From Planctomycetaceae bacterium (GTDB taxonomy: Bacteria > Planctomycetota > Planctomycetia > Pirellulales > UBA1268), in NCBI GenBank assembly GCA_005791575.1, contig SXWA01000142.1, positions 1-63,413 of the forward strand: a DNA stretch of 63,413 bases. The letters are read 5' to 3'. Every line of letters begins with the position of its first letter. Position 1 is the stretch's first letter. This document shows, piece after piece, positions 23,277-63,413 of this stretch. The position numbers were made by a program, and so were the translations under genes. The notes beneath the pieces are model-generated. The model saw only the letters and a program-made list of their open reading frames with translations, searched no databases and was not told the DNA's origin.

Positions 23277-23399
23277 TCAGCCCGTGGCCACAATCCATCC
23301 CTGGCGTTTTGCCACTCGAAACGCCGCGCTTTTCACGGGAGCCGCGCTCCCGGCACCTCCTCCTCGAGGTGCCGCAGGCTGTTTGTCCACAGCCTGCTA
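23277..23399. repeat. five-hairpin interspersed repeat, copy A (reverse orientation)
   Basis: Alignable by eye to copies B-H. Lies between the divergent AI-2E and GT2 genes. Confidence 0.85.
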
Positions 23400-23483
23400 T
23401 CCTGACGACTCACGTCCGCGGAACACCGCCGCCTGTGTGTCGGCCGGTGCCGCTGGACAGGTCCGCTCCCCCATGGTCGCCGC

Positions 23484-25706
23484 ATGAATCCGCCGGACGT
23501 CTCGCTGGTGGTGCCGGTCAGGAACGAGGCGGGCAACATCGGCCCCCTCGTGGCGGAGATCCGCACCGCCCTCGACGCTGCTGGCCTCCGTTGGGAGGTG
23601 TGGATCGTCGATGACGGCTCGAGCGACGGTTCGTGGGACGAGATCGCCGCGGTCGTCGCCGCCGAGCCCCGGGTCGAGGGGATCCGGCAGGGCCGTGGCC
23701 TGGGAAAATCGGCGGCGCTGGCAGCCGGCTTCGCCCGCTGCCGGGGCGACAGGATCGTGATGCTCGACGGCGACGGCCAGGACGATCCCGCGGAGATCCC
23801 CCGGCTCCTCGCCGGGATCGACGCCGGCCACGATCTGGTGAACGGCTGGAAGCACCCGCGCCTCGATCCCTGGGACAAGACGCTGCCCTCGCGCGTGTTC
23901 AATCTGCTGGTCGGGGAGGTCACCGGCCTCCGGCTCCACGACCACAATTGCGGCCTCAAGGCGATGCGTGCAGCGGTGGCCCGTGGCCTTCCGCTCCACG
24001 AACCGGACATGCACCGCTTCATCCCGGTCCTGGCGGCGGCCGCCGGCCACCGGGTCACCGAGGCGGCGGTCCATCATCGCCCCCGGGTCCGTGGCCAGTC
24101 GAAGTATGGGGCGCGCCGGTTCTTCACCGGGCTGGTCGACCTGATGCGCGTCAGCGGCCGGGTGCGCGGGCGCGGGCGCCTCGCGGCGCCGCTGCCCGCC
24201 GGCATGTCGCGCGCCCGGGCCAGACGGAGCGTGGCCTGGATCCTCGCCGCCGTGGCGATCGGCGGGGCGCTGGGCCGGATCGGCGCCGTGTCGAGCGTCG
24301 ACCGCTGGGCCCTGGAGAAACGTCTGGTGACCGACGCCGTCGCCAAAGCGAAGGCCGATGGCGCGCCAGCCGACCCGACCGCGATCCGCAGGCGGATCGA
24401 ACAGGAAAAACGAGTCGTCCGTCCCTTTCTCTCGGCCAACGACCGGAGCCGCTGGCTCACGGTGCGGGCGCTGGTCGAACAGGGCACGTTCGCCATCGAC
24501 GGGCTCGTGGGCGAGCCGGGCTGGGACACGATCGATGCAGTCGCCCACCACGATGCCGCCGGCCGCCTGCGTCTCTATTCGAGCAAACCACCGTTGCTCG
24601 CGGTGCTGGCGGCCGGCCCCTACTGGGTGTTGCATCGCCTGACCGGCTGGACCCTCGGCGACCACCCGTTCGAGATGGGGCGGATGCTGCTGGTGCCGGC
24701 GGCCCTGCTCCCGTTGATCGTCAGCATGCTGTTCACCTTCCGGCTCGTCGATCGGATCGGGGCCAGCGACTGGGGGCGGTTCTGGACGTTCGCCCTCGTC
24801 GCCTGCGGCACCCTCCTCTCGACGTTCGTCGTCGCCTTCACGAACCATCTGCCGGCGGCGGCCTGCACCGCGGTCAGTGGATGGCTGGTGCAGCGGATCC
24901 GCGGCGACGGTCTGCGCAGTGCCGGCGGCTTCTTCACCGCCGGACTGGCGGCGGCGTTGGCCGCCGCGTTCGAACTCCCCGCCCTCGCCTGGGCCGCCGC
25001 GGTGCTGGGCATCCTGGCGATCACCGACCTGCGACGGACGATCACCTGGGCTGCCCCCGCAGCGCTCCTCGTGGCCGTGGCCGCGCTCGGCGCCAATCAT
25101 GCCGCCCACGGCACCCCCTGGCCCGCCTACTCCCATCGTGGCACCGCCCCCGCGGAGGCAGGCGGGCCGGATGCCAACTGGTACGACTACTCCCTCACGT
25201 TGCCGACGGGCAAGGTGCTGACCAGCTACTGGCGCAACCCCCAGGGGGTCGATCGGGGGGAACCATCGGCGGCTGCCTATGCCGTGCACATGCTCGTCGG
25301 CCACCATGGCATTTTCTCACTCACCCCGGCCTGGCTCCTTGTCGTACCGGGACTCGTGCTCCTGGCCTCGCCCCACCGGCATCCGCGGCCCGCCACGCTC
25401 CTGGCGCTGGCGATCCTCGGAGTGTCGGTGGTCGTGATCGGCTTCTATCTCGCCCGTCCACGGCTCGACCGTAACTACGGCGGCGTGGTCTGCTGCTTCC
25501 GGTGGGCGCTGTGGCTGGTGCCCTTGTGGGCCGCCGCGGTGACGCCGGCGGCCGATCGGCTCTCGGCCAGCCGCACCGGCCGCGGGATCGCCCTCCTGCT
25601 GCTCGCCCTGTCGGTGATCTCGGTCAGCCATCCGACATGGAACCCGTGGGCCCCACCCTGGCTGCAGCAGTGGCTCATTCACGGGGGCTGGCTGCCGGAG
25701 TCATGA
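23484..25706 (+). CDS. GT2 polyprenol-phosphate glycosyltransferase fused to a GT-C-like multi-TM domain
   Basis: N-terminal 230 aa are DPM1/ArnC-like (VVPVRNEAGNI, DDGSSDGS, MLDGDGQDDP). The C-terminal roughly 500 aa are polytopic, with a YSSKPPLL loop motif like ArnT/PMT-type GT-C enzymes. Confidence 0.8.
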   Translation: MNPPDVSLVVPVRNEAGNIGPLVAEIRTALDAAGLRWEVWIVDDGSSDGSWDEIAAVVAAEPRVEGIRQGRGLGKSAALAAGFARCRGDRIVMLDGDGQDDPAEIPRLLAGIDAGHDLVNGWKHPRLDPWDKTLPSRVFNLLVGEVTGLRLHDHNCGLKAMRAAVARGLPLHEPDMHRFIPVLAAAAGHRVTEAAVHHRPRVRGQSKYGARRFFTGLVDLMRVSGRVRGRGRLAAPLPAGMSRARARRSVAWILAAVAIGGALGRIGAVSSVDRWALEKRLVTDAVAKAKADGAPADPTAIRRRIEQEKRVVRPFLSANDRSRWLTVRALVEQGTFAIDGLVGEPGWDTIDAVAHHDAAGRLRLYSSKPPLLAVLAAGPYWVLHRLTGWTLGDHPFEMGRMLLVPAALLPLIVSMLFTFRLVDRIGASDWGRFWTFALVACGTLLSTFVVAFTNHLPAAACTAVSGWLVQRIRGDGLRSAGGFFTAGLAAALAAAFELPALAWAAAVLGILAITDLRRTITWAAPAALLVAVAALGANHAAHGTPWPAYSHRGTAPAEAGGPDANWYDYSLTLPTGKVLTSYWRNPQGVDRGEPSAAAYAVHMLVGHHGIFSLTPAWLLVVPGLVLLASPHRHPRPATLLALAILGVSVVVIGFYLARPRLDRNYGGVVCCFRWALWLVPLWAAAVTPAADRLSASRTGRGIALLLLALSVISVSHPTWNPWAPPWLQQWLIHGGWLPES

Positions 25707-26442
25707 CCCGGGCAAGGGCCGCCGCGACCGGCAGCGGCCAGATGGCAGGGGGCTCGGCGCGGGCGGAGCGGGGTGCGGCGGTGTCGGGGTCGCGCCAGGC
25801 AATGTCCCATGCGTGGAGGAGAATCGGCTGCCTGCCCTGGTCCCCGCCCCCGGCGGCACCGTCGAACGCGGGGCCACCGTAGAGTTCGTCACCCACCACC
25901 GGGTGGCCCCGGCTCGCGCACTGCACCCGGAGCTGATGCATCCGCCCGGTGCTCGGCTCGAGCATCACCACCACCTGCCCGGGCCCGACCGGCTCCCCGA
26001 CCGGGGCAACGACCCGCTGAACGGCGCCCACCCGTGTGGTCGCCTGCCGCGCCCCCGCTTCACCGGGCGCGGCCAGGCGTGCGCGGGGCTCGTCCGGCAC
26101 CTTGAGCAGATGATCCTCCCAGGTGGCGCCGGCGACCGGCAGCGTGCCACCGTCGGTGGCGAGGACCGCGAGGTACCGCTTGGCGATCTGCCGGCGCTCG
26201 AACTGCCGGGAGAGGTGCCGCGCGGCACGGGGTGTTTCCGCGAGCAGAAGGATGCCCGAGACGGCCCGATCGAGCCGATGGGGCACACCGAGATACCCCC
26301 CCCTCGCGAGCGGAATGTTCGCCCGCACCCACGACTCCACCGATGCGATCCCAGGCGGGGCCTGCGTGGGAAGTCCGGAAGGCTTCGCGATCGCCACCAC
26401 ACCCGACCAGCGGCCCACCACCAGCGGTTCGTTGTCGGCCAT
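25675..26442 (-). CDS. RluA-family pseudouridine synthase
   Basis: ORF 25675..26769 trimmed to the ATG at 26442 (alternative 26466). Catalytic block HRLDRAVSG and MHQLRVQ. Confidence 0.85.
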   Translation of the reverse strand: MADNEPLVVGRWSGVVAIAKPSGLPTQAPPGIASVESWVRANIPLARGGYLGVPHRLDRAVSGILLLAETPRAARHLSRQFERRQIAKRYLAVLATDGGTLPVAGATWEDHLLKVPDEPRARLAAPGEAGARQATTRVGAVQRVVAPVGEPVGPGQVVVMLEPSTGRMHQLRVQCASRGHPVVGDELYGGPAFDGAAGGGDQGRQPILLHAWDIAWRDPDTAAPRSARAEPPAIWPLPVAAALARVMTPAASPRE

Positions 26443-26596
26443 CACACCACCATCGTGGCCCGGCATGATGGCCCGGCAAACACGGCCGCGGCTTGCGAAC
26501 CACCCGTGAGAACGATTATACCTCTGCCGGGGCGGTGGAACGTTGTTTTTCGTGACGCGGGTGTCTGCGCGCGACCGTAGGACGGCCGGCGCGCGG

Positions 26597-27247
26597 ATGA
26601 CGCTTGATTGGGGTGCGCGCGTGGCGATCCGGGTCCTCGTCGTCGACGACCATGAACTGATCCATCTTGGCTGCCGGAACATGCTCTCGTCGGTCGGCTT
26701 CGACGTGGTGGGCGCCGCCACCGACGGCGAAACCGCCGTGCGCACCGCTGGTGAACTCGGCCCCGACATCGTGCTCCTCGACGCGCGGCTCGGGCAGGCC
26801 GACGGCTTGGCACTGATCCCCCGGCTCCGCAGCGCCGCGCCGAAGACACGGATCGTCGTGTTCTCCGCGTTCGGAAACCGCTCCTACGTTGCCCGGGCAC
26901 TCGCCGTGGGTGCCGAGGACTATCTGCTCAAGTCGGCGCCGCTCGAGGACATCGTGACCGCGCTCAAGCGAGTTGCCGCCGGCGAGCCGATCCCACGCTT
27001 GGCAAGCCAGCGTCGGGCGAAGTCCCCGCCCGGTGATCTGCCCCCGGGAAGCGAACCTGGGCTCACCGACAGGGAAACCGCGGTCCTGCGCCAGATCGCC
27101 GCCGGACGCAGCAATCAGGAGATCGCGTCGGAACTCGCAATCAGCGTGGAGACCGTCAAGGAACACGTCCAAGCCGTACTGCGCAAGACGGTCCTCGTCG
27201 ACCGCACCCAAGCCGCGCTGTGGGCCATCCGGCACGGGATCAGCTGA
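26597..27247 (+). CDS. NarL/LuxR-family response regulator (no adjacent kinase)
   Basis: Receiver domain (RVLVVDDHELI, IVLLDARL) plus a LuxR HTH (LTDRETAVLRQIAAGRSNQEIASELAISVETVKEHV). Start at ATG 26597 or GTG 26621. Confidence 0.85.
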   Translation: MTLDWGARVAIRVLVVDDHELIHLGCRNMLSSVGFDVVGAATDGETAVRTAGELGPDIVLLDARLGQADGLALIPRLRSAAPKTRIVVFSAFGNRSYVARALAVGAEDYLLKSAPLEDIVTALKRVAAGEPIPRLASQRRAKSPPGDLPPGSEPGLTDRETAVLRQIAAGRSNQEIASELAISVETVKEHVQAVLRKTVLVDRTQAALWAIRHGIS

Positions 27248-27309
27248 GTGAACCACCGACCCGGTGGCTAACCTGCGCTGGGGGCCATCCGGCACGGGAT
27301 CAGCTGAGT
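27215..27309. repeat. 35-bp direct duplication of the regulator gene 3' end (27215-27249 and 27275-27309, 1 mismatch)
   Basis: Read directly. The 25-bp spacer contains the hairpin CCACCG-ACC-CGGTGG. Confidence 0.9.
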
Positions 27310-27329
27310 CAATTCCAGAGTCGGGATCC

Positions 27330-27734
27330 TCAGGGCTTCGCCTTTGTCAGCCCCCCGAACTCGGCGGCCGAGACCTGCTTCACCGTGCCGTCCTGAAGGA
27401 GGACGAATCCGCCCTCCTTCGCCGCCTTCGCCTCGAACCCGACGACCGTCTTCGCGGCATCGGGACCGTCGGAGAGTTTCGCCCCCCAGACGTACTCGAT
27501 CGAGCCGTTCTGGATGAACGCTCCCGCGGCGGGGAAGAGCGGTTCGATCGCCGCCATCTCGGCCGCGGATTTCGGTGCCTTCTGCTGGCCGGCTTTCACG
27601 GCATCGAGGAGGGTCTTCAGATCGACGAGGCCGTCGTTGGGGGCCGGCCCCTGCTGAGCACCCTCCTTCTTGCCGCCGCCGCCACACCCGGAGGCCAGCG
27701 GCAACGCGACCGCAACGGCGATCACCAGTGCCAC
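27330..27734 (-). CDS. small lipoprotein downstream of DUF1559 gene
   Basis: Lipobox-like ALPLASGC, then Lys/Ala-rich soluble part. The start is uncertain: GTG at 27734, or CTG at 27746 inside repeat copy B. The longer ORF 27330..27917 runs through the repeat. Confidence 0.5.
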   Translation of the reverse strand: MALVIAVAVALPLASGCGGGGKKEGAQQGPAPNDGLVDLKTLLDAVKAGQQKAPKSAAEMAAIEPLFPAAGAFIQNGSIEYVWGAKLSDGPDAAKTVVGFEAKAAKEGGFVLLQDGTVKQVSAAEFGGLTKAKP

Positions 27735-27740
27735 CGTCCT

Positions 27741-27867
27741 GAGCAGGCTGTGGACAAACAGCCTGCTGCACCGGGGGGATCCGGTGCCGGGAGCGCAGCT
27801 CCCGTGAAAACCACAGGTTTTCGAGTGGACAAAGGCCAGGGATGGACTTTGGACACGGGATGACAGC
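27741..27867. repeat. five-hairpin interspersed repeat, copy B (forward orientation)
   Basis: Intercistronic between the DUF1559 gene and the lipoprotein gene. Stems H2 and H4 carry paired substitutions. Confidence 0.9.
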
Positions 27868-27960
27868 ACCGCCCAGCAGTCAGACCACTTCATCTCCCCT
27901 CCTCCGGTCACCATCACCGACCCGGGACCCAGTCCACCACCGCCGGAAGCCGATCCAACG

Positions 27961-29073
27961 TCACTCGATACTGACGTTCTCGCCGCCCTGCCGACTGCCG
28001 GTCGCCTGCCAGGCGACGAAGTCGATGTCGTCGGAGACGAAACGGGTCGATCCGTCGGCGAATCCGATCATCACCCCGCCGGGATGGTAACTCGACGCGG
28101 CGATGTGGGCGACGGTGAACGACGTCGTGCCGCAGTTGTAACGCTGCTGGGCCAGGTCGCTCGTCTTGCGGTTCCAGTTGGGAGGCAGCGTCGTGCTGAA
28201 CGAGAACGTATACGGCAGGTCGCGGTAGTACTGGTGGCCGGTGTAGCGGATCCAGCTCGACGTGGTGGTGTTGCCGTTGGGCATGCAGGGGGCGACGGTC
28301 CGCCCGTCGATCGCCTGGGCCGCGGTGAAAGCCGACGTGGAATTGAAGGCGGTCGTGTTGTCCCACTGATTGGTGTCGTTCCAAGTCTTCGTGCCGCGGA
28401 TCACCTCGCCGAACATCGCCGTCTTCGAGAGACCGTCGGGAATCTGTGCCGTGCGGAAACCCTTGAGTACGGTGCCTGCGGGAGGGCCTTCGGCCGACGA
28501 ACTGCTGGCGAGAGCACCGGGAAAGGCCATCGCGAAGATGCCGTCGATCGTCGTCCCGCCACGTTGGTTGGCCCCACCCGTGCAGGCCATCAGGTTGTTG
28601 CGTCCGGCACCGAAGTAGTTGTTCGGCGACTGGTCGGACGGGCATATGTACGACGAAACGTCCTGGAGCCGCGCCCTGGAATTGGCACCGGTCTTGGCAG
28701 GGATTCCCGGCGCGATGGCCACGTCGCTGTTGACGTTGTAGTTGAGATCGAACAGCGAATAGCGGTTGGCCTCCTCGAGGTACTGGAGGATCATCACCTG
28801 GGGCACGGCACCGGATGGATACGTGGTCTGCACCCCGAGGGCGTTGGGCAACACCTTCGAATGCCGGTTGGGGGGCAGCGTCTTGTTGGCCGACTCGTAA
28901 TTGAGTGCCGCGAGGCAGGACTGCCGCATGTTGTTCGCGCAGCTTGACCGCCGCGCTGCCTCACGGGCGGCCTGCACCGCCGGCAGGAGGAGCCCCACGA
29001 GGGTGCCGATGATGGCGATCACCACCAGCAGCTCGACGAGCGTGAAACCGCCACGACGCACGGTGGGGTTCAT
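27961..29073 (-). CDS. DUF1559 protein (prepilin-type N-terminal cleavage/methylation domain, H-X9-DG)
   Basis: ORF 27961..29508 trimmed to the ATG at 29073, with GGAGA upstream. N-terminal [35 protein letters not shown]-terminal [18 protein letters not shown]. Confidence 0.9.
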
Positions 29074-29437
29074 GGGAATCTCCAGGAATGAGGGATCGGA
29101 AACGATGATCAAGAAAATAATGAATCGACTCATCGCGAAGCGATGGGCTCCCGACAGCTCGGGACGCCGGCAAACCATCCAACGGTCAGTACCAAACCAC
29201 CGAAGGGTTGGAGCACTCAAGGCGGGCAGCCCGCGTTCGGAACTGACCCGGTCTTCCGCGGAAATCGTCGTTATCCTAGAGTTTTTCCACGCAAACGGCA
29301 ACTTTTTGCCTTCCGGGCAATCCCCTCGACCGGGGAGAATGCCCTCGGGCCCCAACGGCCTGGAAGCCTTCGTGCGGCGCTGCTCCTGAAAACCAGGTGC
29401 CCGCCGGGGCCCCAGCGGACGGCGGTATGCTGATCGC

Positions 29438-30592
29438 ATGATCGATTCTGCTGCGGGGTTCTTCGCCGCCGTGCTGGCGCTGGCAGGACTGTTTCCGGTG
29501 CTCGCCACCCGCTGGCCGCAGCCGTTTTCCGTCGTGCCGCCGATCGTCTGGTCGTACGTGGCGACGACCCTGCTCGCCCTCTGCGGGGCCTGGTCTCAGA
29601 GCCCGGCGATCCATGGGGTCCAGCAGGCGGCGTCGGCCCGCCTCATGCCGGCGCTGGTCTTTCTCCTCATGGTGGGCTGCGATCTGCGGGCAATCGTCGG
29701 CCTCGGTCCCCGGGCGCTGGGGGCGTTCGCCTGCGCCAGCGGGTCGATCCTCGTCGGGCTGGCCGTGGCCTGGGTCGCCTGGCGCGGCTGGCTCCCCGCC
29801 GAAGGCTGGCAAGCCCTCGGCTGCCTGGGGGGAAGTTGGGTCGGTGGCACGGCAAACCTGGTCGCCACCGGTCAGGGCATCAGTGCGGCCCCGGCGATGG
29901 TGGCAGCGGCCCTGCTTGTCGATACGATCTGCTACGCCGCCTGGGTGACATTGCTCTTCGCCACCGTCCCGCTGGCGGGACGATTCGACCATTGGGTGCG
30001 CGCCCGCCCCTGGGATGCCCCCACCACCGGCGCGCGGGCCCCGGAGGCGGCCGCCACCCCGGGGCATGTCCTCTGCTGGCTCGCGGCGGCGCTGGCGGTG
30101 GGCCTCACTGCCGGGCGGCTCGCCGACTCACTGCCGTCCGACGGACCGCTCACCCCGGGAACCTGGACCCTGCTTTTCGCCTCCCTCGCCGGCTTGGTCG
30201 TCGCGGTCACCCCCCTGGCACGACTGCCGGGTGCGGCGGGGGTCGGTTCGGGCCTGCTCGCGGTGGCGGTGGTGACGCTCGCGGCCCAGGGGGATGTGCG
30301 CGGACTCGATCGCGTGGTGTGGCTGGTCGCCGCGGGATTCACCGCGCTGGTCGTCCATGCCCTGCTCATGCTGGCAGCCGCGCGCCTCTGGGGCTTCGAT
30401 CTCGCGCTCTGCGGCATCGCCTCGCTGGCGAGCATCGGTGGCATCGCCTCGGCGCCGCTGCTGGCTGCAGCCCATCGCCATCAGTTGGTTCCGGTCGCCG
30501 TCCTCCTGGCGCTGGTCGGGTACCTTTTCGGCACCTGGGCCGGGATCGGTCTGGCGACGGCACTGTCCCGCTTCCCTGGAGTCACTCCATGA
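29438..30592 (+). CDS. DUF819-like polytopic membrane protein
   Basis: About 10 hydrophobic segments and duplicated WVGGTAN / SIGGIAS blocks. Family assignment is from memory. Confidence 0.6.
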
Positions 30593-38600: not shown

Positions 38601-39823
38601 AGGAGCCACGGGCGCCGTTCCTCGCGCCACGCCTCCTCCTCCGCCAGCGTGACGGCATCGAGATCGGCAGCCGTCGCTTCGGGGTCGTCCACCCATTGGC
38701 GCAGGCGCGGTCCACCGCAGATCACGTCGATCGCCTTTCGCTCGAACTCATATTCGTAGGCGAAGTCGCGCCACAACGGTTCGTCGGGGCGGAGCCGGCG
38801 GAATGCCTTGAGCGCCGCGGCCAACAGGCGCCAGGGGCGGAAGCGGGCCGGATCGTGCCCGACATCGTCGACGTGGATCTGCACCCCCCCGCAAAGCAGT
38901 CCGGCGTGCTTGTGGAAGGTGGGCTCGAACCAGCACGGCCGCAGCCGGCACCCCGGTAGCCACTGCGGCGCCAGCGATTCGATCGTGGCCAGCCAGTCGG
39001 CACCGTCGATGCCGGGAAACCCCCACTGCTCCAGCGGCCGTGTCGTGCCGCGCCCCTCCGAGAGCCAGGTGCCCTCGAGGAGCACCGTGCCGGGATAAAC
39101 TCGCGGCATCCACGGGCTGGCGGCATTGGGGCTCGGGTTCACCCAGGTGCGCTCTCCGAGCGGCCACCCCCACCCCGGCGCCGAGCCGGGCTGCCAGCCG
39201 ACGAGCGGCACGACCGACCACGCCACGTCGAGGCCCAACCGCGCCACGAACCAGCCGGCCATCTCGCCGAGCGTCAGGCCGTGGCGCATCGGCAGCGGTC
39301 CGGCGCCGACGAAACTCTCCTCCCCCGGCTCCAGGCGCAGCCCTTCGACGGGGCGCCCGGCGGGATTGGGGCGGTCGAGCACCCACACCTCACGGTCGGT
39401 CGCGGCCGCGGCCTCGAGAACGAAGCGCAGCGTGGTGAGGAACGTGTAGACACGGCAGCCGACGTCCTGGAGATCGACGAGCAGCAGATCGCAGTCGGCG
39501 AGCATCGCCGCCGTCGGGCGCCGCACCCGGCCGTAGAGGCTGTGCACCGGGATCCCCAGCCGCGGATCGCGGAAGTCGTCCGACTCCTGCATGTTGTCCT
39601 GCTTCTCGCCGCGCAGGCCGTGCTGCGGGCCGAGCGCCGCGACCACGTCGACGCCCGCGGCCGCCAGCGCGTCGAGCGTGTGGGCACAGCACGCCGTGAC
39701 GCTCGCCGGATGCGCGACCACCGCCACGCGCCGACCGGTGAGCCGGCCGAGAAGGTCACAGTCGGAAAGGAGTCGATCGATGCCGAAATCCATCAACTCC
39801 CCCCGTGCGGCAGGCATCGTCAC
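38582..39823 (-). CDS. namZ: DUF1343 protein (NamZ-like exo-beta-N-acetylmuramidase), cytoplasmic paralog
   Basis: GIDRLL, PQHGLRGE, VDLQDVGCRVYTF, LDRPNP and WVNPSPN blocks. No signal peptide. Alternative start at 39793. Confidence 0.8.
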   Translation of the reverse strand: MTMPAARGELMDFGIDRLLSDCDLLGRLTGRRVAVVAHPASVTACCAHTLDALAAAGVDVVAALGPQHGLRGEKQDNMQESDDFRDPRLGIPVHSLYGRVRRPTAAMLADCDLLLVDLQDVGCRVYTFLTTLRFVLEAAAATDREVWVLDRPNPAGRPVEGLRLEPGEESFVGAGPLPMRHGLTLGEMAGWFVARLGLDVAWSVVPLVGWQPGSAPGWGWPLGERTWVNPSPNAASPWMPRVYPGTVLLEGTWLSEGRGTTRPLEQWGFPGIDGADWLATIESLAPQWLPGCRLRPCWFEPTFHKHAGLLCGGVQIHVDDVGHDPARFRPWRLLAAALKAFRRLRPDEPLWRDFAYEYEFERKAIDVICGGPRLRQWVDDPEATAADLDAVTLAEEEAWREERRPWLLYPDVP

Positions 39824-39844
39824 TTCGGCCGTTCAGCGGGCCGT

Positions 39845-43305: not shown

Positions 43306-45689
43306 CACGACGGCAGGTGATGGCGACGACCGGCGCGGTGCTCATGGCGGCGGTCCTCTGGGGCGTTGCCGGGATGACCGGCGCCTGCGCACAGGCTCTG
43401 CCGGTCGTGCCTCCCGGCGACATCGGGCTGATGGCGGAACGGTTGGCGACGATCAAGCCGCTCGTCGAGGCCGAGATCGCCGCCGGGAATCTGCCCGGCT
43501 GCGTGGTCTGCGTCGGCCGCGGCAGCCGGATCGGCTGGCTCGAGGCGATCGGCGACCGGCAGGTGGGCCCCGACGCAGAGCCGATGACGGTCGACACGAT
43601 CTTCGACCTCGCCTCGCTCACCAAACCGGTCGCCACCGCCACCGCCATCATGCAATTGGTCGAGGAGGGCAAACTGCGCCTCTCCGACACCGTGGCCAGC
43701 CTCTTCCCGGCGTTCGCCGCCAAGGGCAAGGAGAAGATCACCGTCCGCGATCTGCTCGTCCACACCAGCGGCCTGATCGCCGACAACGCCCTGGCCGACT
43801 ACGCCGACGGCCCGGAGAAGGCGATCGAGCGGATCATGGATCTCGAGCCGCTCGCGCCTCCCGGCGAACGGTTCATCTATTCCGACGTCAATTTCATCCT
43901 CCTCGGCGAACTGGTGGCGAAGCTCTCCGGCCGGCCACTCGCGGAGCAGGTGCGCGAGCGGATCTGCCGGCCGCTGGGGATGGCCGACACCGGCTTCCTT
44001 CCCGCCGCTGAACTCCGCCCGCGGATCGCGCCCACCGAGCCGCGCGACGGCGCGCCGCTCAGGGGGGCCGTCCACGATCCCCGCGCCTGGAAGCTCGGCG
44101 GCGCCGCCGGCCATGCCGGCCTCTTCGGCACTGCCCCCGATCTGGCTGTCTATGCCTCCGCGCTCCTCGCCGCCGGCCACGGCAGTGCGGTCGCCGGCAG
44201 TGCGGTCGCCGGCAGTGCGGTCGCCGGCAGTGCGGCTCCGATCCTCGGTCCACGGGCGGTCGCCGAGATGACCCGCCCGTGGCGCGTGCCGGGTGGAGGA
44301 ATGCGCGGTCTCGGCTGGGACAAGCGGAGCGGCTTCTCCTCCAACCGCAGCGACCTCTACACCGACACCGCCTTCGGCCATGGCGGATTCACCGGCACGA
44401 GCCTCTGGATCGACCCCCGCCTCGATCTGTTCGTGATCTTCCTCTCGAGCCGGCTCCACCCCGATGGCAAGGGGCTGGTGAATCCGCTCGCCGCGCGGAT
44501 CGGTTCGGTGGCGGTGGCCGCGATCGGCACGCCCACCACGGTGGCCGAGCCGGCACGGCAGGTGCTCACGGGGATCGATGTCCTGGTGCGTGACGGATTC
44601 CGCCAGCTCGCCGGCCGGCGCGTCGGCCTGATCACCAACCACACCGGCCGGACACACGACGGCCGGACCACGCCGGCGGCGCTCGGCGAGGCGAAGGGGC
44701 TCGAGTTGGTGGCGCTGTTCAGCCCCGAGCACGGTTTCGCCGGCGCCCTCGACCAGTCGGACGTGCCCGACGCGAAGGATCCGGCGACCGGGCTGCCGGT
44801 GCGGAGCCTCTACGGCAAGACGCGCCGCCCCACGGCGGAGATGCTCGCCGACCTCGACACGCTCGTCTACGACATCCAGGACATCGGCTGCCGCTTCTAC
44901 ACCTATGTCTCGACGAGGGGGGAGGCAATGAAGGCGGCCGCCGAGCAGGGGAAGCGGTTCGTCGTCCTCGACCGGCCCAACCCGATCAACGGCATCGACG
45001 TGGCGGGCCCGATGCTCGATCCGGGCAGCGAGTCGTTCGTCGGTTGGCACACGCTCCCGCTGCGCCACGGCATGACCGTCGGCGAACTGGCGCGGCTGTT
45101 CAACGAGGAACTGAAGCTCGGCCTCGATCTGGTGGTCGTGCCGTGCGAGGGCTGGAGGCGCGCCGATGCCTGGGAGGCGACGGGGCTCGAATGGGTCAAC
45201 CCCTCGCCCAACATGCGCAGCCTCACCGAGGCCTTCCTCTATCCGGGCATCGGCCTGCTCGAGACGACCAACGTGTCGGTGGGGCGTGGCACCGACACCC
45301 CCTTCGAGGTGATCGGCAGCCCGTGGATCGACGGTCCGGTCCTTGCCGCGGCGCTCGCCGCCCGCGGTCTGCCGGGGGTGGCCTTCGTGCCGCTCACCTT
45401 CACCCCCGACGCGAGTACGTTCAAGAACGAGCGCTGCGGCGGGGTGAACGTCCTCATCACCGACCGCGCCGCCTTCGATCCGGTGCGCACCGGCCTCGAG
45501 ATCGCGGCTGCCCTGCGCCGCCTCCACCCCGAGGCGTGGAAGGTGGACGGCTACGGCCGTCTGCTGGCGAGCAAAGCCGTGCTCGACGCGATCCGCACCG
45601 GTGGCGATCCCCAGGGCGTGATCGACCTCTCGGCCGCCGGCCTGCGCGAGTTCCACGCCCGGCGCACCCCGCACCTGCTCTACGACTGA
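43302..45689 (+). CDS. exported beta-lactamase-fold (AmiE/AmpH-like) domain fused to DUF1343/NamZ domain
   Basis: The ATG at 43302 overlaps the symporter stop (ATGA). Tat-like [25 protein letters not shown] and YSDVN motifs in the N-terminal half. The C-terminal half parallels the 38582..39823 protein (GIDVL, PEHGF, YDIQDIGCRFYTY, LDRPNP, WVNPSPN). Confidence 0.8.
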   Translation: MTRRQVMATTGAVLMAAVLWGVAGMTGACAQALPVVPPGDIGLMAERLATIKPLVEAEIAAGNLPGCVVCVGRGSRIGWLEAIGDRQVGPDAEPMTVDTIFDLASLTKPVATATAIMQLVEEGKLRLSDTVASLFPAFAAKGKEKITVRDLLVHTSGLIADNALADYADGPEKAIERIMDLEPLAPPGERFIYSDVNFILLGELVAKLSGRPLAEQVRERICRPLGMADTGFLPAAELRPRIAPTEPRDGAPLRGAVHDPRAWKLGGAAGHAGLFGTAPDLAVYASALLAAGHGSAVAGSAVAGSAVAGSAAPILGPRAVAEMTRPWRVPGGGMRGLGWDKRSGFSSNRSDLYTDTAFGHGGFTGTSLWIDPRLDLFVIFLSSRLHPDGKGLVNPLAARIGSVAVAAIGTPTTVAEPARQVLTGIDVLVRDGFRQLAGRRVGLITNHTGRTHDGRTTPAALGEAKGLELVALFSPEHGFAGALDQSDVPDAKDPATGLPVRSLYGKTRRPTAEMLADLDTLVYDIQDIGCRFYTYVSTRGEAMKAAAEQGKRFVVLDRPNPINGIDVAGPMLDPGSESFVGWHTLPLRHGMTVGELARLFNEELKLGLDLVVVPCEGWRRADAWEATGLEWVNPSPNMRSLTEAFLYPGIGLLETTNVSVGRGTDTPFEVIGSPWIDGPVLAAALAARGLPGVAFVPLTFTPDASTFKNERCGGVNVLITDRAAFDPVRTGLEIAAALRRLHPEAWKVDGYGRLLASKAVLDAIRTGGDPQGVIDLSAAGLREFHARRTPHLLYD
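44181..44236. repeat. 15-bp in-frame tandem repeat x3.7 (ggcagtgcggtcgcc; GSAVA)n
   Basis: Read directly. Lies inside the beta-lactamase-fold domain. Confidence 0.9.
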
Positions 45690-55040: not shown

Positions 55041-55225
55041 CCGTGGCCCGGTCATCGAAAAAGTGGTGCCAAAATGGTGCCGCAGGGCACCGAGAGGCCC
55101 CGCAGGAGCCCGCACGGCCAGATGGGCCGCGGGGCGGAAACCGGAGAGTTGCGGCCGAAAACCGCAGATCGCGACCCGATACGAGCGGGTGCGGAAAAAG
55201 CGAAGTGCCCCGTCTAGGACTCGAA
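55041..55225. repeat. proximal direct repeat (tRNA-Lys 3' end plus downstream flank), partner of 50061-50184
   Basis: See the partner feature at 50061-50184. This copy contains an extra segment of about 60 bp relative to the distal copy. Confidence 0.8.
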
Positions 55226-55279
55226 CCTAGAACCCTCTGATTAAGAGTCAGATGCTCTGACCAATTGAGCTAACGGGGC
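55206..55279 (-). tRNA. tRNA-Lys (anticodon CUU)
   Basis: 74-nt manual cloverleaf. Acceptor GCCCCGT/ACGGGGC, D arm GCTC-AATTGGTCA-GAGC, anticodon arm TCTGA-CTCTTAA-TCAGA, T arm CTAGG-TTCGAGT-CCTAG, discriminator A. No encoded CCA. Confidence 0.95.
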
Positions 55280-56783: not shown

Positions 56784-56885
56784 CGGTCGTCCATCCCCGG
56801 CCACCCGAAAAGCTACGGTTCTCACCCGTGCTGCGCTCCCGGCCCCTCATCCCCGAGGGGCGGCAGGCCGAGCACCCGCAGCGCC
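56781..56885. repeat. five-hairpin interspersed repeat, copy E (reverse, degenerate)
   Basis: Recognisable H5 remnant, H4 and H3 remnants, and an alternative H2 stem GCCCCTC/GAGGGGC. Lies between convergent genes. Confidence 0.55.
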
Positions 56886-56920
56886 ATGGCCGTCCCTCAG
56901 ATCCACGAGCCGCCAGCGAG

Positions 56921-58579: not shown

Positions 58580-58637
58580 CGGCGTTGCTCCGTGATCCGC
58601 AGGTCGTGTCAGCCGTCGTTCAAGCGCCCAGGGTCGT

Positions 58638-60278
58638 TCAAGGTGCCGGCGCCGGCGGGGGTGTCTCGACCACCGTCGCCGGAACGACCCGCGGCGGCGT
58701 CGAGGTGAGCGGCTCCGGCGGCTGCTCCAGCGGTGCCGCCGGGGGCAGGAGCAGCGACGTGAACAGCCGCCCGAAATCGCTGTCGTCGGCGGCGAAGATC
58801 TCGCCGAGCGACGGGGCCACCCGGGCGAGGACGGCGTTGCGGGCGAACAGCTCCGGGCTGCCGAACCCCTCGACGCTCGTCCTCAGGGCCGCAACCTCCG
58901 CCTCGTTCTGCGCGGTGATCACCGCCGCCTCCGCCTCGGCCTTGGAGCGCACCGCCTTGGCCTGCTCCTTCGCCGCCTCGAGCTGGCTCTCGGCGACCGT
59001 CACCAGGGCCGTCAGCTTCTGCTTCTCCACCTCGAGTTGCTGCTGGGCCTGTGTCTCGGCCTGGACGAGGCGCGTCTCGGCCTGGACGCGCTCGCGCTTC
59101 TGCATGGCCTGCGCCTCCTGGGCCTTGAGCGCCTGCTCGTTGGTGTACTGCTTCACCATCTCCTTGTTGCGGAGCTGCTCGGCCAGCGCCGTCTCGCGGT
59201 CGGAGATCTCGCGGGCCAGCTCCGGCGGGGGCTCCATCTGGCCGACCGAGATCGCCCGGATGTCGACCCCGAGTTCCTCGCAGCGTGGCTTGACCGCCTC
59301 GAGGAGCGCCTGCCGGAAGCGTTCGCGGGCGTTGATCACCACGTCGCTGGTCTCGCCCGGCACGAGAATGAAGTCGGTGGCGTTGAAGGTGCTCCCCTCG
59401 AGCCTGGCAAAACCTCGGATGTGGGGAAGGACGACCTTCTGGAGGATCTCGTTGCGGGAGATGTCCTCGCGCGACTGGTCGGCCTGGTAGATCTTCCCCT
59501 CGTCGGTGATCCGCACGAGAAGTTCCGCGGCGTCGTCCTTGATGACCGCATACTCGACCTGGATGTGCGGCCGGAGCGTGAACCCGTCGCGCGATGGAAA
59601 CGAGATGTCGTCGAAGTCGACCTTGTGGCTGCGGACTTCGATCGGAGTGATCGCCTCGACGAATGGATTGACGTAGTAGGTGCCGGGGGGCAGGTATGCC
59701 TGCTGGACGCCCCGGTATCCCTCCTCGGCGACGACATAGCTTCCTTGCCGTCTCTCGGGCGGGAGCGTGCCGGGATCCTTCCCGACCTTCCGTGTCCTCA
59801 CGCCGACGTACTGCGCCTTGACCTCGATCGCGTCGATGACCTGGAGGTCGTAGGCGTGGGGATTGATCGAGTAGGTGCCCGGCGTGAGCGGCTCCGCGAC
59901 GATTCCCGTCTCCCCGTCCCCGGCGAGCAACTCACCGGCATCGATCCGCTCCTGCGGAATCGGCCTGCCGAACTTCCGCGTCAGCACGCCGCACCTGCCG
60001 GTGGGGATGTTGGTCATCTCGTGGACTTCGTGCCCGTAGAACAGCGGGTTGAGGAAGTGCCGGCCGGGCCCACGGGTCTGCTCGAGGACCCCCTTGTAGG
60101 ATTCGTCCGGGGCGAGGATCTCGGCCGGGGGCAGGTTCTTCCCCCAGCGGTGGATGACGACGAGGAACTTCCCTGGAGGGACCTCGATCCGCTCGATCTC
60201 CCACTTCCAGGCCAGCAGGCCCAGCGCCACGCCGGCAGCCGCGACCAGGGCCCAGACGATCACCTTTCCGCCATTCAT
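58638..60278 (-). CDS. SPFH/Band 7 (flotillin-like) membrane protein, paralog 1
   Basis: GGGAGGA 7 nt upstream of the ATG. N-terminal TM VIVWALVAAAGVALGLLAW. Same architecture as 56921..58579. Confidence 0.8.
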   Translation of the reverse strand: MNGGKVIVWALVAAAGVALGLLAWKWEIERIEVPPGKFLVVIHRWGKNLPPAEILAPDESYKGVLEQTRGPGRHFLNPLFYGHEVHEMTNIPTGRCGVLTRKFGRPIPQERIDAGELLAGDGETGIVAEPLTPGTYSINPHAYDLQVIDAIEVKAQYVGVRTRKVGKDPGTLPPERRQGSYVVAEEGYRGVQQAYLPPGTYYVNPFVEAITPIEVRSHKVDFDDISFPSRDGFTLRPHIQVEYAVIKDDAAELLVRITDEGKIYQADQSREDISRNEILQKVVLPHIRGFARLEGSTFNATDFILVPGETSDVVINARERFRQALLEAVKPRCEELGVDIRAISVGQMEPPPELAREISDRETALAEQLRNKEMVKQYTNEQALKAQEAQAMQKRERVQAETRLVQAETQAQQQLEVEKQKLTALVTVAESQLEAAKEQAKAVRSKAEAEAAVITAQNEAEVAALRTSVEGFGSPELFARNAVLARVAPSLGEIFAADDSDFGRLFTSLLLPPAAPLEQPPEPLTSTPPRVVPATVVETPPPAPAP

Positions 60279-60314
60279 CGTCGGTTCCTCCCGCTGCCCG
60301 GCCTTCGCCGCAGG

Positions 60315-61100
60315 TCAGCCCCCCTCGTGGATCCGCTTCTTGAGCCCTTCGAGCTCGGCGTCGACGGCGGCGCTCGTCGCCGCGTCGGCGGCCGCGTCGC
60401 GCAGCTCGGCGTCGGTGCCGGTGACGCCGTCGGCTTCCAGCGCCTTGCGCAGGTCGGCCTCGACCCGGCCGATGACACGGGCGGAGATCTGCTTCTCCTC
60501 GACCATGTTCTCCGCCTTCCGCCAGTTGGCGACCGCGCTGAACGGGTCGAACTCGCTGGCGATCCGGTACTGCTGCTCGACCGACTTCGCCTCGGCGAGC
60601 TGCGCGAGGAGCAGTTCACGCCCGACCTCGTACTGCCGCAGTTGCAGCTCCGCGGCATAGAGATTGCGGCGGATCTCGTCGATCTGCCGGGCATGGCGGG
60701 CACGCTGTTCGCGAAACGACTCCAGCGCCTGCCGCTCGAGCGTGCTTTTGAACAGCACCCCCTTGGCCGTGAGGTCATCGCCGTGCCGCGCGGCCTCGCG
60801 CGCCTCGCCGTCGAGCGTGGCGAGGTTGTTCTCGCTCTGGACGATGTTGCGGTCGAGCGTCTCGTCGGCGGCATGGGCCCGGGCGAGCGTCTGGTTGAGC
60901 GCCGCGACCATCTCGCGATATTGCTTCACGACCTGCTCGATGACCTCCTCCGGCTCCTGCTTCCGCGTCCAGAACTGCGACCACAACCGGCCGGCGACCG
61001 CCCGGAACTTCGCGGGGCCGACGGCCAGCACGGCCAGCGCCACCGGGAGGCCGATGAACAGCAGCCCACGGAGGATCAGGTATTCGAAGAGCCGTGGCAT
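60315..61100 (-). CDS. PspA/IM30-like coiled-coil protein with N-terminal hydrophobic anchor
   Basis: ATG at 61100 (the ORF opens at GTG 61106). LFEYLILRGLLFIGLPVALAVLAV is followed by a PspA-like helical hairpin (EEVIEQVVKQYREMVAALNQTLARAHAADETLDRN ... GDDLTAKGVLFKSTLERQ ...). Confidence 0.6.
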   Translation of the reverse strand: MPRLFEYLILRGLLFIGLPVALAVLAVGPAKFRAVAGRLWSQFWTRKQEPEEVIEQVVKQYREMVAALNQTLARAHAADETLDRNIVQSENNLATLDGEAREAARHGDDLTAKGVLFKSTLERQALESFREQRARHARQIDEIRRNLYAAELQLRQYEVGRELLLAQLAEAKSVEQQYRIASEFDPFSAVANWRKAENMVEEKQISARVIGRVEADLRKALEADGVTGTDAELRDAAADAATSAAVDAELEGLKKRIHEGG

Positions 61101-61287
61101 CGACACCGCTCGATCAGTGGTCTGTCACGCTGCCGCGACGGGCTTTTTCTCGGCCTCTGGTCAGGATCCTACCCTCCCCACGGGGCGGTCGCGACGACGG
61201 TCCACGATCACGGTGGCCGTCGCCATGCCGGTCGGGCCGACCCCGTCGCCCGGGCCGCCGTTCCGCCGCCGGCGGCGTCATGGGCTA

Positions 61288-61415
61288 CCGGCAGCCCGTG
61301 GCCAAAGTCCATCGATGGCCTTTGGGCATTCGAAAAGCGGTGCTTTTCGCCGCAACCGTGCTCCCGGCACCCGGGGTCTGTCGGGTGCCGCAGGCTGTTT
61401 GGACATCGGCTGCTA
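61288..61415. repeat. five-hairpin interspersed repeat, copy F (reverse orientation)
   Basis: H5, H4, H2 (alternative stem GCACCCG/CGGGTGC) and H1 are recognisable. Its H1 end abuts or overlaps the yidD stop codon (61413-61415). Confidence 0.8.
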
Positions 61416-61670
61416 CGGCGGATCATGCCCCCCGGGATGCCAGGGATGGCACCGACAGATCCGGGCCAGGCCCTTGATCGTGCCCGCCACCGCTCCGTCG
61501 CGCTGCACCACGAGGCGGAAGTATTCGCTGCAGGTCGGTTGGAAGCGGCAGGTTCGCCCGAGGAGCGGGCTCAGGCACCACTGGTAGGCACGCACGAGCG
61601 CGACGAGCACACCGACGGCGGCCCGATCGCACCCGCGCATCACGGTCCGCAGCACGTCCATTGCGGTCAC
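61413..61670 (-). CDS. yidD: membrane protein insertion efficiency factor YidD
   Basis: YQWCLSPLLGRTCRFQPTCSEY ... GLARICRCHPW signature. The GTG at 61670 overlaps the rnpA stop (alternative ATG at 61661). Confidence 0.9.
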   Translation of the reverse strand: MTAMDVLRTVMRGCDRAAVGVLVALVRAYQWCLSPLLGRTCRFQPTCSEYFRLVVQRDGAVAGTIKGLARICRCHPWHPGGHDPP

Positions 61671-62083
61671 CGGCGGCGCGGCCTGGGTGGCGGCGATTCG
61701 TCGGTGCGGCGCTCCCGCCGACCGACGGCGCGCCTGCCGAGCGTGATCAGCAGAGCCTCCACCGCCTGCTGGCCGGAGGCCCCCGCGGGCACGACGCTGG
61801 TCCGCACCACGACGCAGTAATCATGGTCGGGTGCCAGGTCCGCGGCCACGCTGCGGAAGGCCTCGCGCAGCCGGCGCTTCCACCGGTTGCGCACGACCGC
61901 GTTGCCGACCCGCCGCGACACCGACAGGCCGAGCCGCGGGCCGCGGCTGTCGTCGCGCCGGCAGACATGGAGCACCACTCCCTCGGCCGCAGCGGTCCGC
62001 CGGGCGGCGAACACACGGGCGAAGTCGGCCGGCGTGCGCATCCGGGCCGCCGCGGGAAAGCGGGCCCCGCCTTCGGTCACCAC
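61667..62083 (-). CDS. rnpA: ribonuclease P protein component
   Basis: RMRTPADFARVF ... LGLSVSRRVGNAVVRNRWKRRLREAFR signature. GTG start at 62083 or 62080, overlapping the cbpA-like stop. Confidence 0.8.
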   Translation of the reverse strand: MVTEGGARFPAAARMRTPADFARVFAARRTAAAEGVVLHVCRRDDSRGPRLGLSVSRRVGNAVVRNRWKRRLREAFRSVAADLAPDHDYCVVVRTSVVPAGASGQQAVEALLITLGRRAVGRRERRTDESPPPRPRRR

Positions 62084-63054
62084 TGCAGCCGCGCTCGCGG
62101 ACCGGCGCCGGCGGCATCGGCCGCACGCGCGGCGTCGAGGAGCCGCTCCACGGTCTCGGCATCAGCCCCCTCGGGCAGCATCACCTGGACCACCGCGATC
62201 AGGTCGCCACGCGAGCCGTTGGCATGCCGCACCCCCATGCCCGCCGCCCGGAGACGGCGGCCCGAGCTCGTCAGCGGCGGCACCCGCAGGCTGATCGTGC
62301 CCCAGGGGGTGGGGAGATCGACCTTCGCGCCGGCGAGCGCCTCCGACAGCGACACGGGGAGCGGCACCTCGAGGGTGTCGCCATCACGTCGGTAGAGCTG
62401 ATGCGGCTCGACATGCACCTCGAGCATCAGGTCACCCGCGGGTCCGCCACCGGTGCCGGGCATTCCCTGCCCACGGAGCCGCATCCGCGCCCCGTCGGGG
62501 AGCCCCTGGGGAATCGTCACGCTGATCGTCTCGACGGCACCGTCGCGATCGACGCGGAGGTCAGTCTTCCCCCCTTCGATCGCCAGCCGGAAGGGGATCA
62601 TGAGCGATGTCTTCAGGTCTTCGCCGGGAGGCTGTGCAGCGCGGCGCTTCCCCCGGCCTTTGCCGCCGCCAGAGCCCGCCGTCGGGCGGCCACCGCCGCC
62701 GAACAGGTCGGCGAAGCCACCGCCGCCGAACAGGCTCTCGATGTCGATTTCGTCGCCGTTGAAACCGCCGCCCGCGCCACCGGGAAATCCCCCACCGAAC
62801 GGCCCCCGTCCCGGGCCCCCGCCGGTACCGACTCCCTCGAACGCGCTCCCATAGCGGTCGTACATCTCCCGCTTGCTCTGGTCATTGAGCACGTCGAACG
62901 CGGTCTGGACGCGTTTGAATTTCTCCTTGGCGGCGTCGTCGTCGGGGTGCAGATCGGGGTGGTACTTCCGCGCCAAGTCACGGTAGGCCTTGCGGATGTC
63001 CTCCGCCGACGCCGTTCGCGGCACACCGAGTGTCTGGTAGTGGTCGTCCGCCAT
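62077..63054 (-). CDS. cbpA: DnaJ-class co-chaperone without zinc-finger domain (CbpA-like)
   Basis: J domain DHYQTLGVPRTASAEDIRKAYRDLARKYHPD, a Gly/Phe-rich linker, C-terminal substrate-binding repeats, no CxxCxGxG motifs. ATG at 63054 (the ORF opens at GTG 63057). Confidence 0.85.
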   Translation of the reverse strand: MADDHYQTLGVPRTASAEDIRKAYRDLARKYHPDLHPDDDAAKEKFKRVQTAFDVLNDQSKREMYDRYGSAFEGVGTGGGPGRGPFGGGFPGGAGGGFNGDEIDIESLFGGGGFADLFGGGGRPTAGSGGGKGRGKRRAAQPPGEDLKTSLMIPFRLAIEGGKTDLRVDRDGAVETISVTIPQGLPDGARMRLRGQGMPGTGGGPAGDLMLEVHVEPHQLYRRDGDTLEVPLPVSLSEALAGAKVDLPTPWGTISLRVPPLTSSGRRLRAAGMGVRHANGSRGDLIAVVQVMLPEGADAETVERLLDAARAADAAGAGPRARLQW

Positions 63055-63171
63055 CACGAACCGCCTGGGGGGTCACGCGGAGAATCATTCCACGCGAAAA
63101 ACCTGCCAAAACGCCTGAAAACCAGTGTAGGAGCAAGCGTTGACCGCCGGCAAGCGTCGATCGGTAGAACC

Positions 63172-63295
63172 GGCTGCTGACAGGCTGTGGACAGACAGCC
63201 AGCTGCACCTCAGGGATGAGGTGCCGGGAGCGCAGCTCCCGTGAAAAGCGCAGCTTTTCGGATGGCCAAAGGCTATGGATGGACTTTGGCCACGG
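63172..63295. repeat. five-hairpin interspersed repeat, copy G (forward)
   Basis: First unit of a head-to-tail dimer upstream of the cbpA-like gene. Confidence 0.9.
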
Positions 63296-63413
63296 GCTGT
63301 CAGCAGGCTGTGGCCACACAGCCTGCTGCACCTCAGGGATGAGGTGCCGGGAGCGCAGCTCCCGTGAAAAGCGCAGCTTTTCGGAGGGCCAAAGGCCATG
63401 GATGGACTTTGGC
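63296..63413. repeat. five-hairpin interspersed repeat, copy H (forward, cut by window end)
   Basis: Second unit of the dimer. Near-perfect hairpins H1-H5. Confidence 0.9.

Follow-up and report, generated by a model that had tools for sequence, protein, structure and literature searches.

A 119-bp repeat of five hairpins in a Planctomycetaceae contig: very probably a miniature inverted-repeat transposable element derived from an IS1182/IS5-like insertion sequence

A 63,413-nt stretch of contig SXWA01000142.1 of a Planctomycetaceae bacterium (hereafter the window, by which we mean this whole stretch of DNA; G+C 71%) carries an interspersed repeat built from five consecutive hairpins, H1 to H5, which is very probably a miniature inverted-repeat transposable element (MITE): a 119-bp non-coding, non-autonomous derivative of an insertion sequence (IS) resembling the IS1182 and IS5 families. 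The assignment is based on size, inverted repeats, target duplication, copy number and the existence of a cognate IS; of the usual marks of such an element, a precise empty site is the one missing. As judged from a literature search, the family is previously undescribed, within a well-known type of element: no description of a 119-bp element was found in the literature on planctomycete MITEs or repetitive extragenic palindromes (REPs), the only paper retrieved (PMC3733652) dealing with different elements. An earlier sequence-only reading of the window had left three origins side by side, a MITE-like mobile element, an element akin to REPs or bacterial interspersed mosaic elements (BIMEs), and a structured RNA module. 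The first of these is borne out: the ends are inverted repeats, 4 bp of target sequence are duplicated, and an IS that encodes a transposase has the same termini. The other two fare poorly against the evidence presented below.

Copies of the repeat and anatomy of the element

Both a repeat comparison of the window, in which the positions concerned match one another, in direct or inverted orientation, over 110-132 nt with 76-93% identity, and an nhmmer search with a profile built from the copies recover exactly the eight copies (A to H) that the sequence-only reading had listed, none of them in bases 1-23000 (Table 1). A 21-base core pattern matches seven times in the window and not once in 100 shuffles. 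Every copy in the window lies between Pfam-supported genes, in agreement with the description of the repeat as essentially intergenic. Two open reading frames (ORFs), 49785-50354 (-) and 27264-27863 (+), start or run inside copies D and B, respectively, and have no Pfam match; in the high-GC genome of the window, spurious or over-extended ORFs tend to absorb the repeat.

Further copies were mapped by searching related genomes, the wider set consisting of related planctomycete metagenome-assembled genomes (MAGs) and lake metagenomes that together provided approximately 820 kb of loci. Among species-representative genomes, the core pattern was found at 11 loci, nine of them in the Planctomycetia MAG RFRL01, one in a Planctomycetaceae MAG and one in a MAG labelled Lentisphaerales, whose contig is a near-duplicate of a metagenome contig. 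Another 91 loci with the core pattern came from the metagenomes, where many contigs stop inside a copy. The collected loci yielded 198 nhmmer matches, 123 of which are full length. A blastn search of the PLSDB plasmids returned no match to the repeat.

The core measures exactly 119 nt in 98 of the 110 unique full copies and runs from CAGGCTGTGG to CCACGGGCTG. Its termini are imperfect inverted repeats (CAGGCTGTGGACAAAC ... CTTTGGCCACGGGCTG), the left end CAGGCTGTGGACAAAC and the reverse complement of the right end, CAGCCCGTGGCCAAAG, being identical at about 12 of 16 positions, a likeness that is kept across copies. The element has no gene of its own; core and one flanking 4-mer together amount to 123 nt, or 41 codons, and are open in three of the six frames. 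A TauE/SafE gene of the wider set (L081 3813-4817, minus strand) has accommodated a copy in frame at 4258-4386, between flanks CCAG/CCAG, as an insert of 41 residues (SPWPKSILGLWPLETLRFSRELRSRHRIPPVQQAVCPQPA) across which the Pfam TauE match extends. Other copies that rough gene calls based on GC3 had placed within genes were for the most part due to ORFs called too far into 5' leaders, which leaves the TauE case as the one that stands.

Duplication and choice of the target site

The core is bordered by 4-mers that are identical on both sides in 44 of the 110 copies, against 8.4 expected from shuffled partners, and agreement over the four bases beyond them is no better than chance (1.3 of 4). 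Position by position, the two 4-mers agree directly in 82, 70, 80 and 85 of the 110 copies, with the flank consensus C/T-T/C-A/G-G; the 220 flanks include CCAG 37 times, CTAG 35 times, TTAG 24 times and GTAG seven times. Non-palindromic 4-mers, of which there are 89 cases, form direct repeats in 34 and inverted ones in four, and the internal haplotype of a copy shows no association with its flank 4-mer. The 4-mer is thus a target-site duplication, neither a part of the element nor an extension of its inverted repeats. The inverted ends noticed in copy D by the sequence-only reading are accordingly real, with the correction that their outermost CTAG is target duplication and not element.

CTAG is a scarce word in this DNA: base composition predicts 167 sites for the window, which has nine (approximately 18-fold depletion). 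Two of the nine flank copy D, and three (50173, 55214 and 55227) lie in or adjoin a repeat of a tRNA-Lys 3' end described below. Over all loci, 55 of the 128 CTAG sites flank a copy, and usage per genomic occurrence is approximately 40-fold higher for CTAG and TTAG than for CCAG. The duplicated 4-mer holds the stop codon of the flanking ORF in 13 of 122 copies; the same is true of copy F, which the earlier reading had seen to reach the stop codon of yidD and whose flanking GTAG contains that codon. In 15 of the 110 copies a single 4-mer is followed directly by the next copy (period 123, as in G-H), and some arrays repeat the same 4-mer at each junction (TTAG three times in L004).

The transposase described below would integrate the element by cutting YTAG/CYRG targets with a 4-bp stagger. 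As each insertion duplicates the rare CTAG, the pattern suggests that the flanks of resident copies may become preferred targets, which would give head-to-tail arrays sharing one 4-mer, G-H among them; the other targets left are at stop codons and within spacers, and this would account for the mostly intergenic position of copies.

The partner insertion sequence and the origin of the unit

A transposase with matching ends was sought by searching for solo termini and then for transposase homologues and the DNA surrounding them. On locus L069, which itself bears the MITE, a truncated gene for a transposase of the DDE type is followed by GACTTTGGCCACGGGCTG and then TTAA, the former being the last 18 nt of the repeat. 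Full-length homologues of this transposase (445-448 aa) contain the Pfam domains DUF772, DDE_Tnp_1 and DDE_Tnp_1_6 (PF05598, PF01609 and PF13751), and on L115, L116, L117 and L118 they reside in an IS of approximately 1.48 kb with the termini of the MITE and CTAG-type 4-bp flanks. The IS on L115 spans 1479 bp with one ORF of 445 aa, beginning with CAGGCTGTGGACAAAGTC after CTAG and ending with GACTTGGGCCACGGGCTG before ATAG; that on L116 begins with CAGCCCGTGGCCCAAGTCGG after CTAG and is followed by CTAG again, and those on L117 and L118 are similar. L069 also holds two copies of the IS. The family model that best matches the transposase is NF033551 (transpos_IS1182; E = 8e-52 and 1e-55), the second-best being IS5_4 at 98-105 bits. 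The sequence-only reading had suggested looking for a transposase with matching ends, and the one found is of an IS1182/IS5-like DDE type.

Two composites link the IS to the 119-bp unit. One, at L069:5131-6693, retains an intact 448-aa ORF at 5252-6598 and has CTAG on both sides; in the other, at approximately L002:4352-5037, the ORF has decayed and the flanks are CTCG/CTCG. Bases 1 to approximately 86 of the repeat (H1-H4) run, in each composite, into the right inverted repeat of the IS, from which only the CAGCCC tip is missing, and the other terminus is the ordinary left end of the IS. The length shared by MITE and IS is limited to approximately 16-19 nt per end. Comparison of these sequences indicates that the 119-bp unit corresponds to the composite IS minus its interior, which is to say a MITE. 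H5 (GTGGCCAAAG-loop-CTTTGGCCAC) therefore consists of the inner portions of both IS inverted repeats, connected by approximately 12 nt, and H1 of the terminal tip CAGGCTG together with an inverted tip CAGCCTG. H2-H4 form a separate hairpin cassette unrelated to the IS sequence. A second variant of the IS on L069 has the terminus ...GGACTTTTTCCACAGTCTG, and a MITE subfamily marked by TTTTTCC (L014, L084, L010) carries the same change in both arms of H5. The transposase would act in trans, presumably by binding the 16-19-bp ends.

Solo termini or solo H1 hairpins without the rest of the element occur at L011 3739-3754, L069 2913-2928, L088 10810-10835 and L115 2850-2875 and 4385-4405, and full copies are often abutted by partial ends. 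Such remnants are consistent with deletions or with repeated insertion beside resident ends.

Evidence of mobility

The syntenic loci L106 and L107, whose Band7 orthologue is 92% identical to that of the window at the protein level, lack the element both in the yidD-pspA spacer and upstream of dnaJ, where the window has copy F and copies G and H. Their Band7/NUDIX spacer does contain copies, in an orientation opposite to that of copy E, and the insertions are therefore independent. L106 has two tandem copies at 8433-8679, with a shortened junction (period approximately 120), where L107 has one at 8256-8382, and the encoded Band7 protein is identical; this is a copy-number polymorphism between near-identical strains. 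On L036, the gene of an IS3-type transposase is broken by an inserted copy; the sequence is homologous to the intact IS3 element of the window exactly as far as ATAG, on one side only. Further relatives (L108-L114; 78-90% protein identity) had no synteny or no copies at these sites and gave no information.

Several points weigh against the MITE assignment or narrow it. The window itself has no transposase gene of this kind. The contigs that carry the IS belong to related populations (L069, and L002 from RFRL01, a MAG with 92% protein identity in the Band7 orthologue P0002), and not demonstrably to the genome from which the window comes. The IS1182 scores of 177 and 189 bits fall below the NCBIfam cut-off of 270, which makes the family assignment approximate. 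The target duplication is perfect in only 40% of the copies. A base-precise empty site was not recovered at F or at G/H, the L106/L107 spacers being too diverged for the junctions to be aligned, and no empty allele was found among the approximately 820 kb of loci, where BLAST searches with joined flanks gave only redundant filled alleles. Transposition itself is deduced from the comparison of sequences.

Hairpins: fold, covariation and constraint

As RNA, copy D is predicted to fold into the five consecutive stem-loops of the sequence-only reading (-66.8 kcal/mol, z = -5.7), and its opposite strand, folded as DNA, reaches -36.4 (z = -6.4). The H2 stem variants described for copies B, C, E and F and the H4 variant of copy B are all present in the alignment of copies. 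Covariation was assessed on 57 diverse copies, with 500 shuffles and slid partners as controls. Paired cells make up 91.3% (86.7% in shuffles), changes on both sides affect 25 of the 44 pairs (8.2 +/- 1.8 in shuffles, none of which reaches the observed value), and the covariation score is 0.120, against 0.053 for shuffles and 0.02-0.03 for slid partners. Within H2-H4, both sides have changed in 13 of 23 pairs. A distant member (L065:1108-1235) keeps the five hairpins with H2 and H3 stems that differ in sequence and yet pair.

Compensatory changes are thus statistically supported; they arose between subfamilies and not after insertion. Most double changes fall on a small number of sites that define subfamilies (30/31-38/39, 68-74 and those of the H5 variants), and what looks like covariation in H1 and H5 is due to the inverted-repeat symmetry of the transposase sites. 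In the set of 98 copies close to consensus, stems harbour common variants 3.6-fold less often than loops do (3.0% vs 10.8%), and rare variants, which presumably arose after insertion, show no significant difference (1.09% vs 1.48%, chi-square approximately 2.9). G:T and A:C mismatches are equally frequent (35 vs 35), with no RNA wobble signature on either strand. Selection for hairpin potential therefore seems to work among propagating lineages and not on every copy once inserted. The claim of compensatory change in the stems thus stands statistically, with the qualification just given for H1 and H5, and that of selection on secondary structure seems to hold among lineages of the element; individual copies show no host-level or strand-specific RNA selection, and the repeat does not behave as an RNA gene would.

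What the H2-H4 cassette does is the weakest step of the proposed mechanism. In the composite IS it lies directly 3' of the transposase ORF, and it might serve as a block at mRNA 3' ends that insulates against read-through, or else aid in bringing the ends of the element together; this is our best guess, and a tentative one that we would not put at even chances. The fuller proposal, that H2-H4 are a functional portable module gained at the transposase-distal end of the IS, kept for its ability to form hairpins and spread by the MITE to gene ends, strikes us as possible and, on balance, unlikely. Two observations count against such a role: a terminator-like U-tract is absent and a scan with consensus terminator and promoter patterns found nothing inside copies, and, according to rough gene calls, the copies show no orientation bias with respect to co-directional genes (17 sense, 24 antisense).

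Alternative explanations

Foremost among the alternatives to a functional cassette is a MITE whose hairpins have no function, the palindromes maintaining themselves through intrastrand template switching or gene conversion and the compensation being a mutational by-product or a matter of subfamily inheritance. Self-correction of palindromes is a known mutational process, and the parity of G:T and A:C mismatches, the lack of stem constraint in rare variants and the concentration of double changes at a few subfamily-defining sites are all as this explanation would have them. It sits less well with the rarity of common variants in stems, with the double changes in more than half of the H2-H4 pairs and with the wholly different H2 and H3 stems of distant members that still pair, and we regard it as unlikely, though deserving of serious consideration. 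The opposite view, in which the repeat is a host-selected structured RNA (a cis-regulatory element, small RNA or RNA-stability module) each copy of which serves its neighbouring genes, could appeal to the very stable predicted fold, to covariation above both shuffled and slid controls, to the five hairpins retained by the divergent L065 copy and to the location of copies in leaders, between cistrons and at 3' ends. Against it, the copies take both orientations relative to genes, bear target duplications and IS ends and, in one case, lie in frame within a TauE gene; stems are not significantly depleted in post-insertion variants, wobble pairs are not favoured, and inverted-repeat symmetry accounts for H1 and H5. 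Rfam, to which the sequence-only reading had pointed, offers no family match either, even at E <= 10: at gathering thresholds the only hit in the window is tRNA-Lys, and at E <= 10 copy D attracts chance-level matches only (fiv_FSE, 18.8 bits vs 53). We consider a structured RNA of this kind very improbable.

More improbable still is an element of the REP/BIME type, or a pair of REPs forming a hairpin (REPIN), moved by a REP-associated tyrosine transposase (RAYT), an HUH enzyme that recognises hairpins in single-stranded DNA. The palindromic units, the NTAG beside the first hairpin and the clusters and tandems invite the comparison, as do reports of GTAG-tagged REPs in the Planctomycetes-Verrucomicrobia-Chlamydiae (PVC) superphylum, which includes the Planctomycetes, and of tyrosine-transposase genes with flanking repeats in R. 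baltica (PMC3733652). The 4-mer of the present element is, however, variable and directly duplicated on both sides, with G at its first position in only 4-9 of the 110 copies; insertion of the REP/RAYT and IS200/IS605 types yields no target duplication, and the ends are those of an IS with a DDE transposase. Among the neighbours of copies no Y1/HUH gene was noticed, in the course of work that included no systematic search for Y1 genes. The sequence-only suggestion of a REP/BIME-like origin is therefore not upheld, given the target duplication, the want of a conserved GTAG/CGTC head and a partner of the DDE, not the HUH, kind. A MITE of the Tc1/IS630 type that duplicates TA within CTAG was also considered; the CAG... 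termini loosely resemble Tc1/IS630 ends, and TA is the commonest centre of the flank 4-mer. This idea is refuted, leaving it next to no probability, by the direct duplication of all four flank positions (TTAG/TTAG, GTAG/GTAG, CCAG/CCAG and CTGG/CTGG among them) and by the IS with identical ends, which encodes DUF772, DDE_Tnp_1 and DDE_Tnp_1_6 and not the DDE_3 of IS630-type transposases.

Relation to known elements

Bacterial MITEs are non-coding elements of 70-300 bp with 15-30-bp terminal inverted repeats that resemble degenerate IS and occur in many dispersed, mostly intergenic copies (PMC3733652). The planctomycete element is like those of Neisseria (Correia/NEMIS), S. pneumoniae (RUP) and Yersinia (ERIC/YPAL) in size, ends and dispersal, and additionally has a target duplication and a cognate IS. 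Compared with other bacterial MITEs, it has only approximately 16-19 nt per end in common with its IS, it consists of five short hairpins and not of one long fold-back, and head-to-tail arrays with one common 4-mer are frequent (the 15 copies mentioned above). Correia elements target TA, whereas the target here is a 4-bp CTAG-like site.

The partner IS recalls ISPse1 of Paracoccus, a member of the IS1182 family of 1653 bp with 16-bp inverted repeats and a 4-bp duplication (PMC3281130), in having a single DDE ORF, inverted repeats of approximately 16-19 bp and a 4-bp duplication within 1.48 kb. It differs from IS1182 in scoring below the curated cut-off and in also matching IS5 models, and it is best described as an outlying relative; the variant at L069:5131-6693 carries, in addition, a hairpin module of approximately 86 nt with a new outer terminus. 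REPs are units of 20-40 bp with a conserved unpaired GTAG/CGTC head, mobilised by HUH tyrosine transposases without target duplication (PMC3733652). REP, BIME and REPIN elements are alike to the present one in their short palindromic units, their clustering in tandems and the compensatory changes in their stems; the planctomycete element is set apart by its inverted-repeat termini, by the duplication of 4 bp of target, by a DDE enzyme as partner and by the lack of a conserved head. Rickettsia palindromic elements (RPEs) are reported as in-frame insertions in ORFs whose products are likely functional (PMC3733652). The 41-residue insert in the TauE/SafE gene is reminiscent of them, but most copies of the planctomycete element are intergenic, and its transposase partner and target duplication are evident.

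Table 1. Copies of the 119-bp repeat and CTAG sites in the window
Feature	Position (strand)	Core	Flanking 4-mers (left / right)	nhmmer extent	Neighbouring genes	Remarks
A	23274..23400 (-)	23278-23396	ATAG / ATGG	23272-23401 (-)	divergent AI-2E transporter (-) and GT2 glycosyltransferase (+)	nhmmer E = 1e-34
B	27740..27866 (+)	27744-27862	TGAG / ACAG	27740-27868 (+)	convergent LuxR-type response regulator (+) and DUF1559 gene (-)	subfamily with H2 CCGG/CCGG and H4 AACC/GGTT
C	48234..48345 (+)		ATAG /	48234-48326 (+); 3' part diverged	probable DUF1559 gene fragment (-) and PEP-CTERM protein gene (-)	H1-H4 recognisable, H2 enlarged; H5 and right terminus diverged or lost; nhmmer model positions 5-90
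D	50326..50452 (-)	50330-50448	CTAG / CTAG	50325-50453 (-)	SIR2 gene; copy starts 153 nt downstream	perfect duplication; near family consensus
E	56789..56883 (-)			56789-56883 (-); degenerate	convergent NUDIX (+) and Band7 (-)	old, degenerate; ends eroded, H3 broken; nhmmer model positions 11-105
F	61288..61416 (-)	121 nt	GTAG /	61286-61415 (-)	between yidD and pspA	two additional bases in H2; left 4-mer is the source of the yidD TAG stop codon
G	63177..63303 (+)	63181-63299	CTGA / TCAG	63176-63303 (+)	upstream of dnaJ (-)	right 4-mer common to copy H
H	63300..63413 (+)		TCAG /	63298-63413 (+)	upstream of dnaJ (-)	head-to-tail with G, period 123, junction a single TCAG; window end cuts the element after 110 of 119 core bases
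CTAG sites	4777, 14389, 29276, 49816, 50173, 50326, 50449, 55214, 55227

Other features of the window

The IS3-family element mentioned above (51423-52715) is complete, with perfect 33-bp inverted ends (TGAGACGGCCTACTACTTCCGGACTGCGGGGAG) that are unrelated to the repeat and with orfA and orfB (HTH_Tnp_1; HTH_21 and rve); its homologue on L036, interrupted by a copy of the repeat, is 84% identical. A 113-nt direct repeat (50072-50184 and 55113-55225, 89% identity) duplicates the 3' end of tRNA-Lys(CTT) (55205-55279, minus strand) together with approximately 93 nt downstream. It brackets a segment of approximately 5 kb that holds a thioredoxin-like gene, the IS3 element, the SIR2 gene and copy D. 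The spacer of approximately 400 nt between the adh_short and FG-GAP genes of L106/L107 has no counterpart of some 7.5 kb of the window that include this segment. No integrase was seen for the segment, which looks like the remnant of a tRNA-integrated island.

A 43-nt direct repeat (27210-27252 and 27270-27312, 91% identity, spacing 60) lies approximately 430 nt upstream of copy B and duplicates the final codons and stop of the LuxR-type response-regulator gene. Adjoining copy C, a 99-aa ORF (47747-48046, minus strand) aligns with the DUF1559 domain at its C-terminal end only and has a 65-nt stretch (82% identity) in common with the full DUF1559 gene near copy B (27961-29508, minus strand); it is probably a gene fragment left by rearrangement. 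Finally, a 138-nt inverted repeat (39431-39568 and 44778-44915, 74% complementarity, 5.2 kb apart) probably represents paralogous coding sequence on opposite strands.

Implications

The element explains a conspicuous repeat that breaks assemblies of freshwater planctomycetes, in which many contigs end inside copies, and that misleads gene callers into extending ORFs and placing start codons within copies. Its origin is unusually traceable, from a canonical IS through an IS with an added hairpin module and a decayed derivative to the 119-bp MITE. The pattern of insertions suggests a simple rule, in which an element that targets and duplicates the rarest tetranucleotide of its genome, CTAG, creates its own new targets; this would account both for the head-to-tail arrays and for insertions exactly at stop codons. 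Should the hairpin cassette prove functional, the family would provide an example of a transposon that distributes a structured module.

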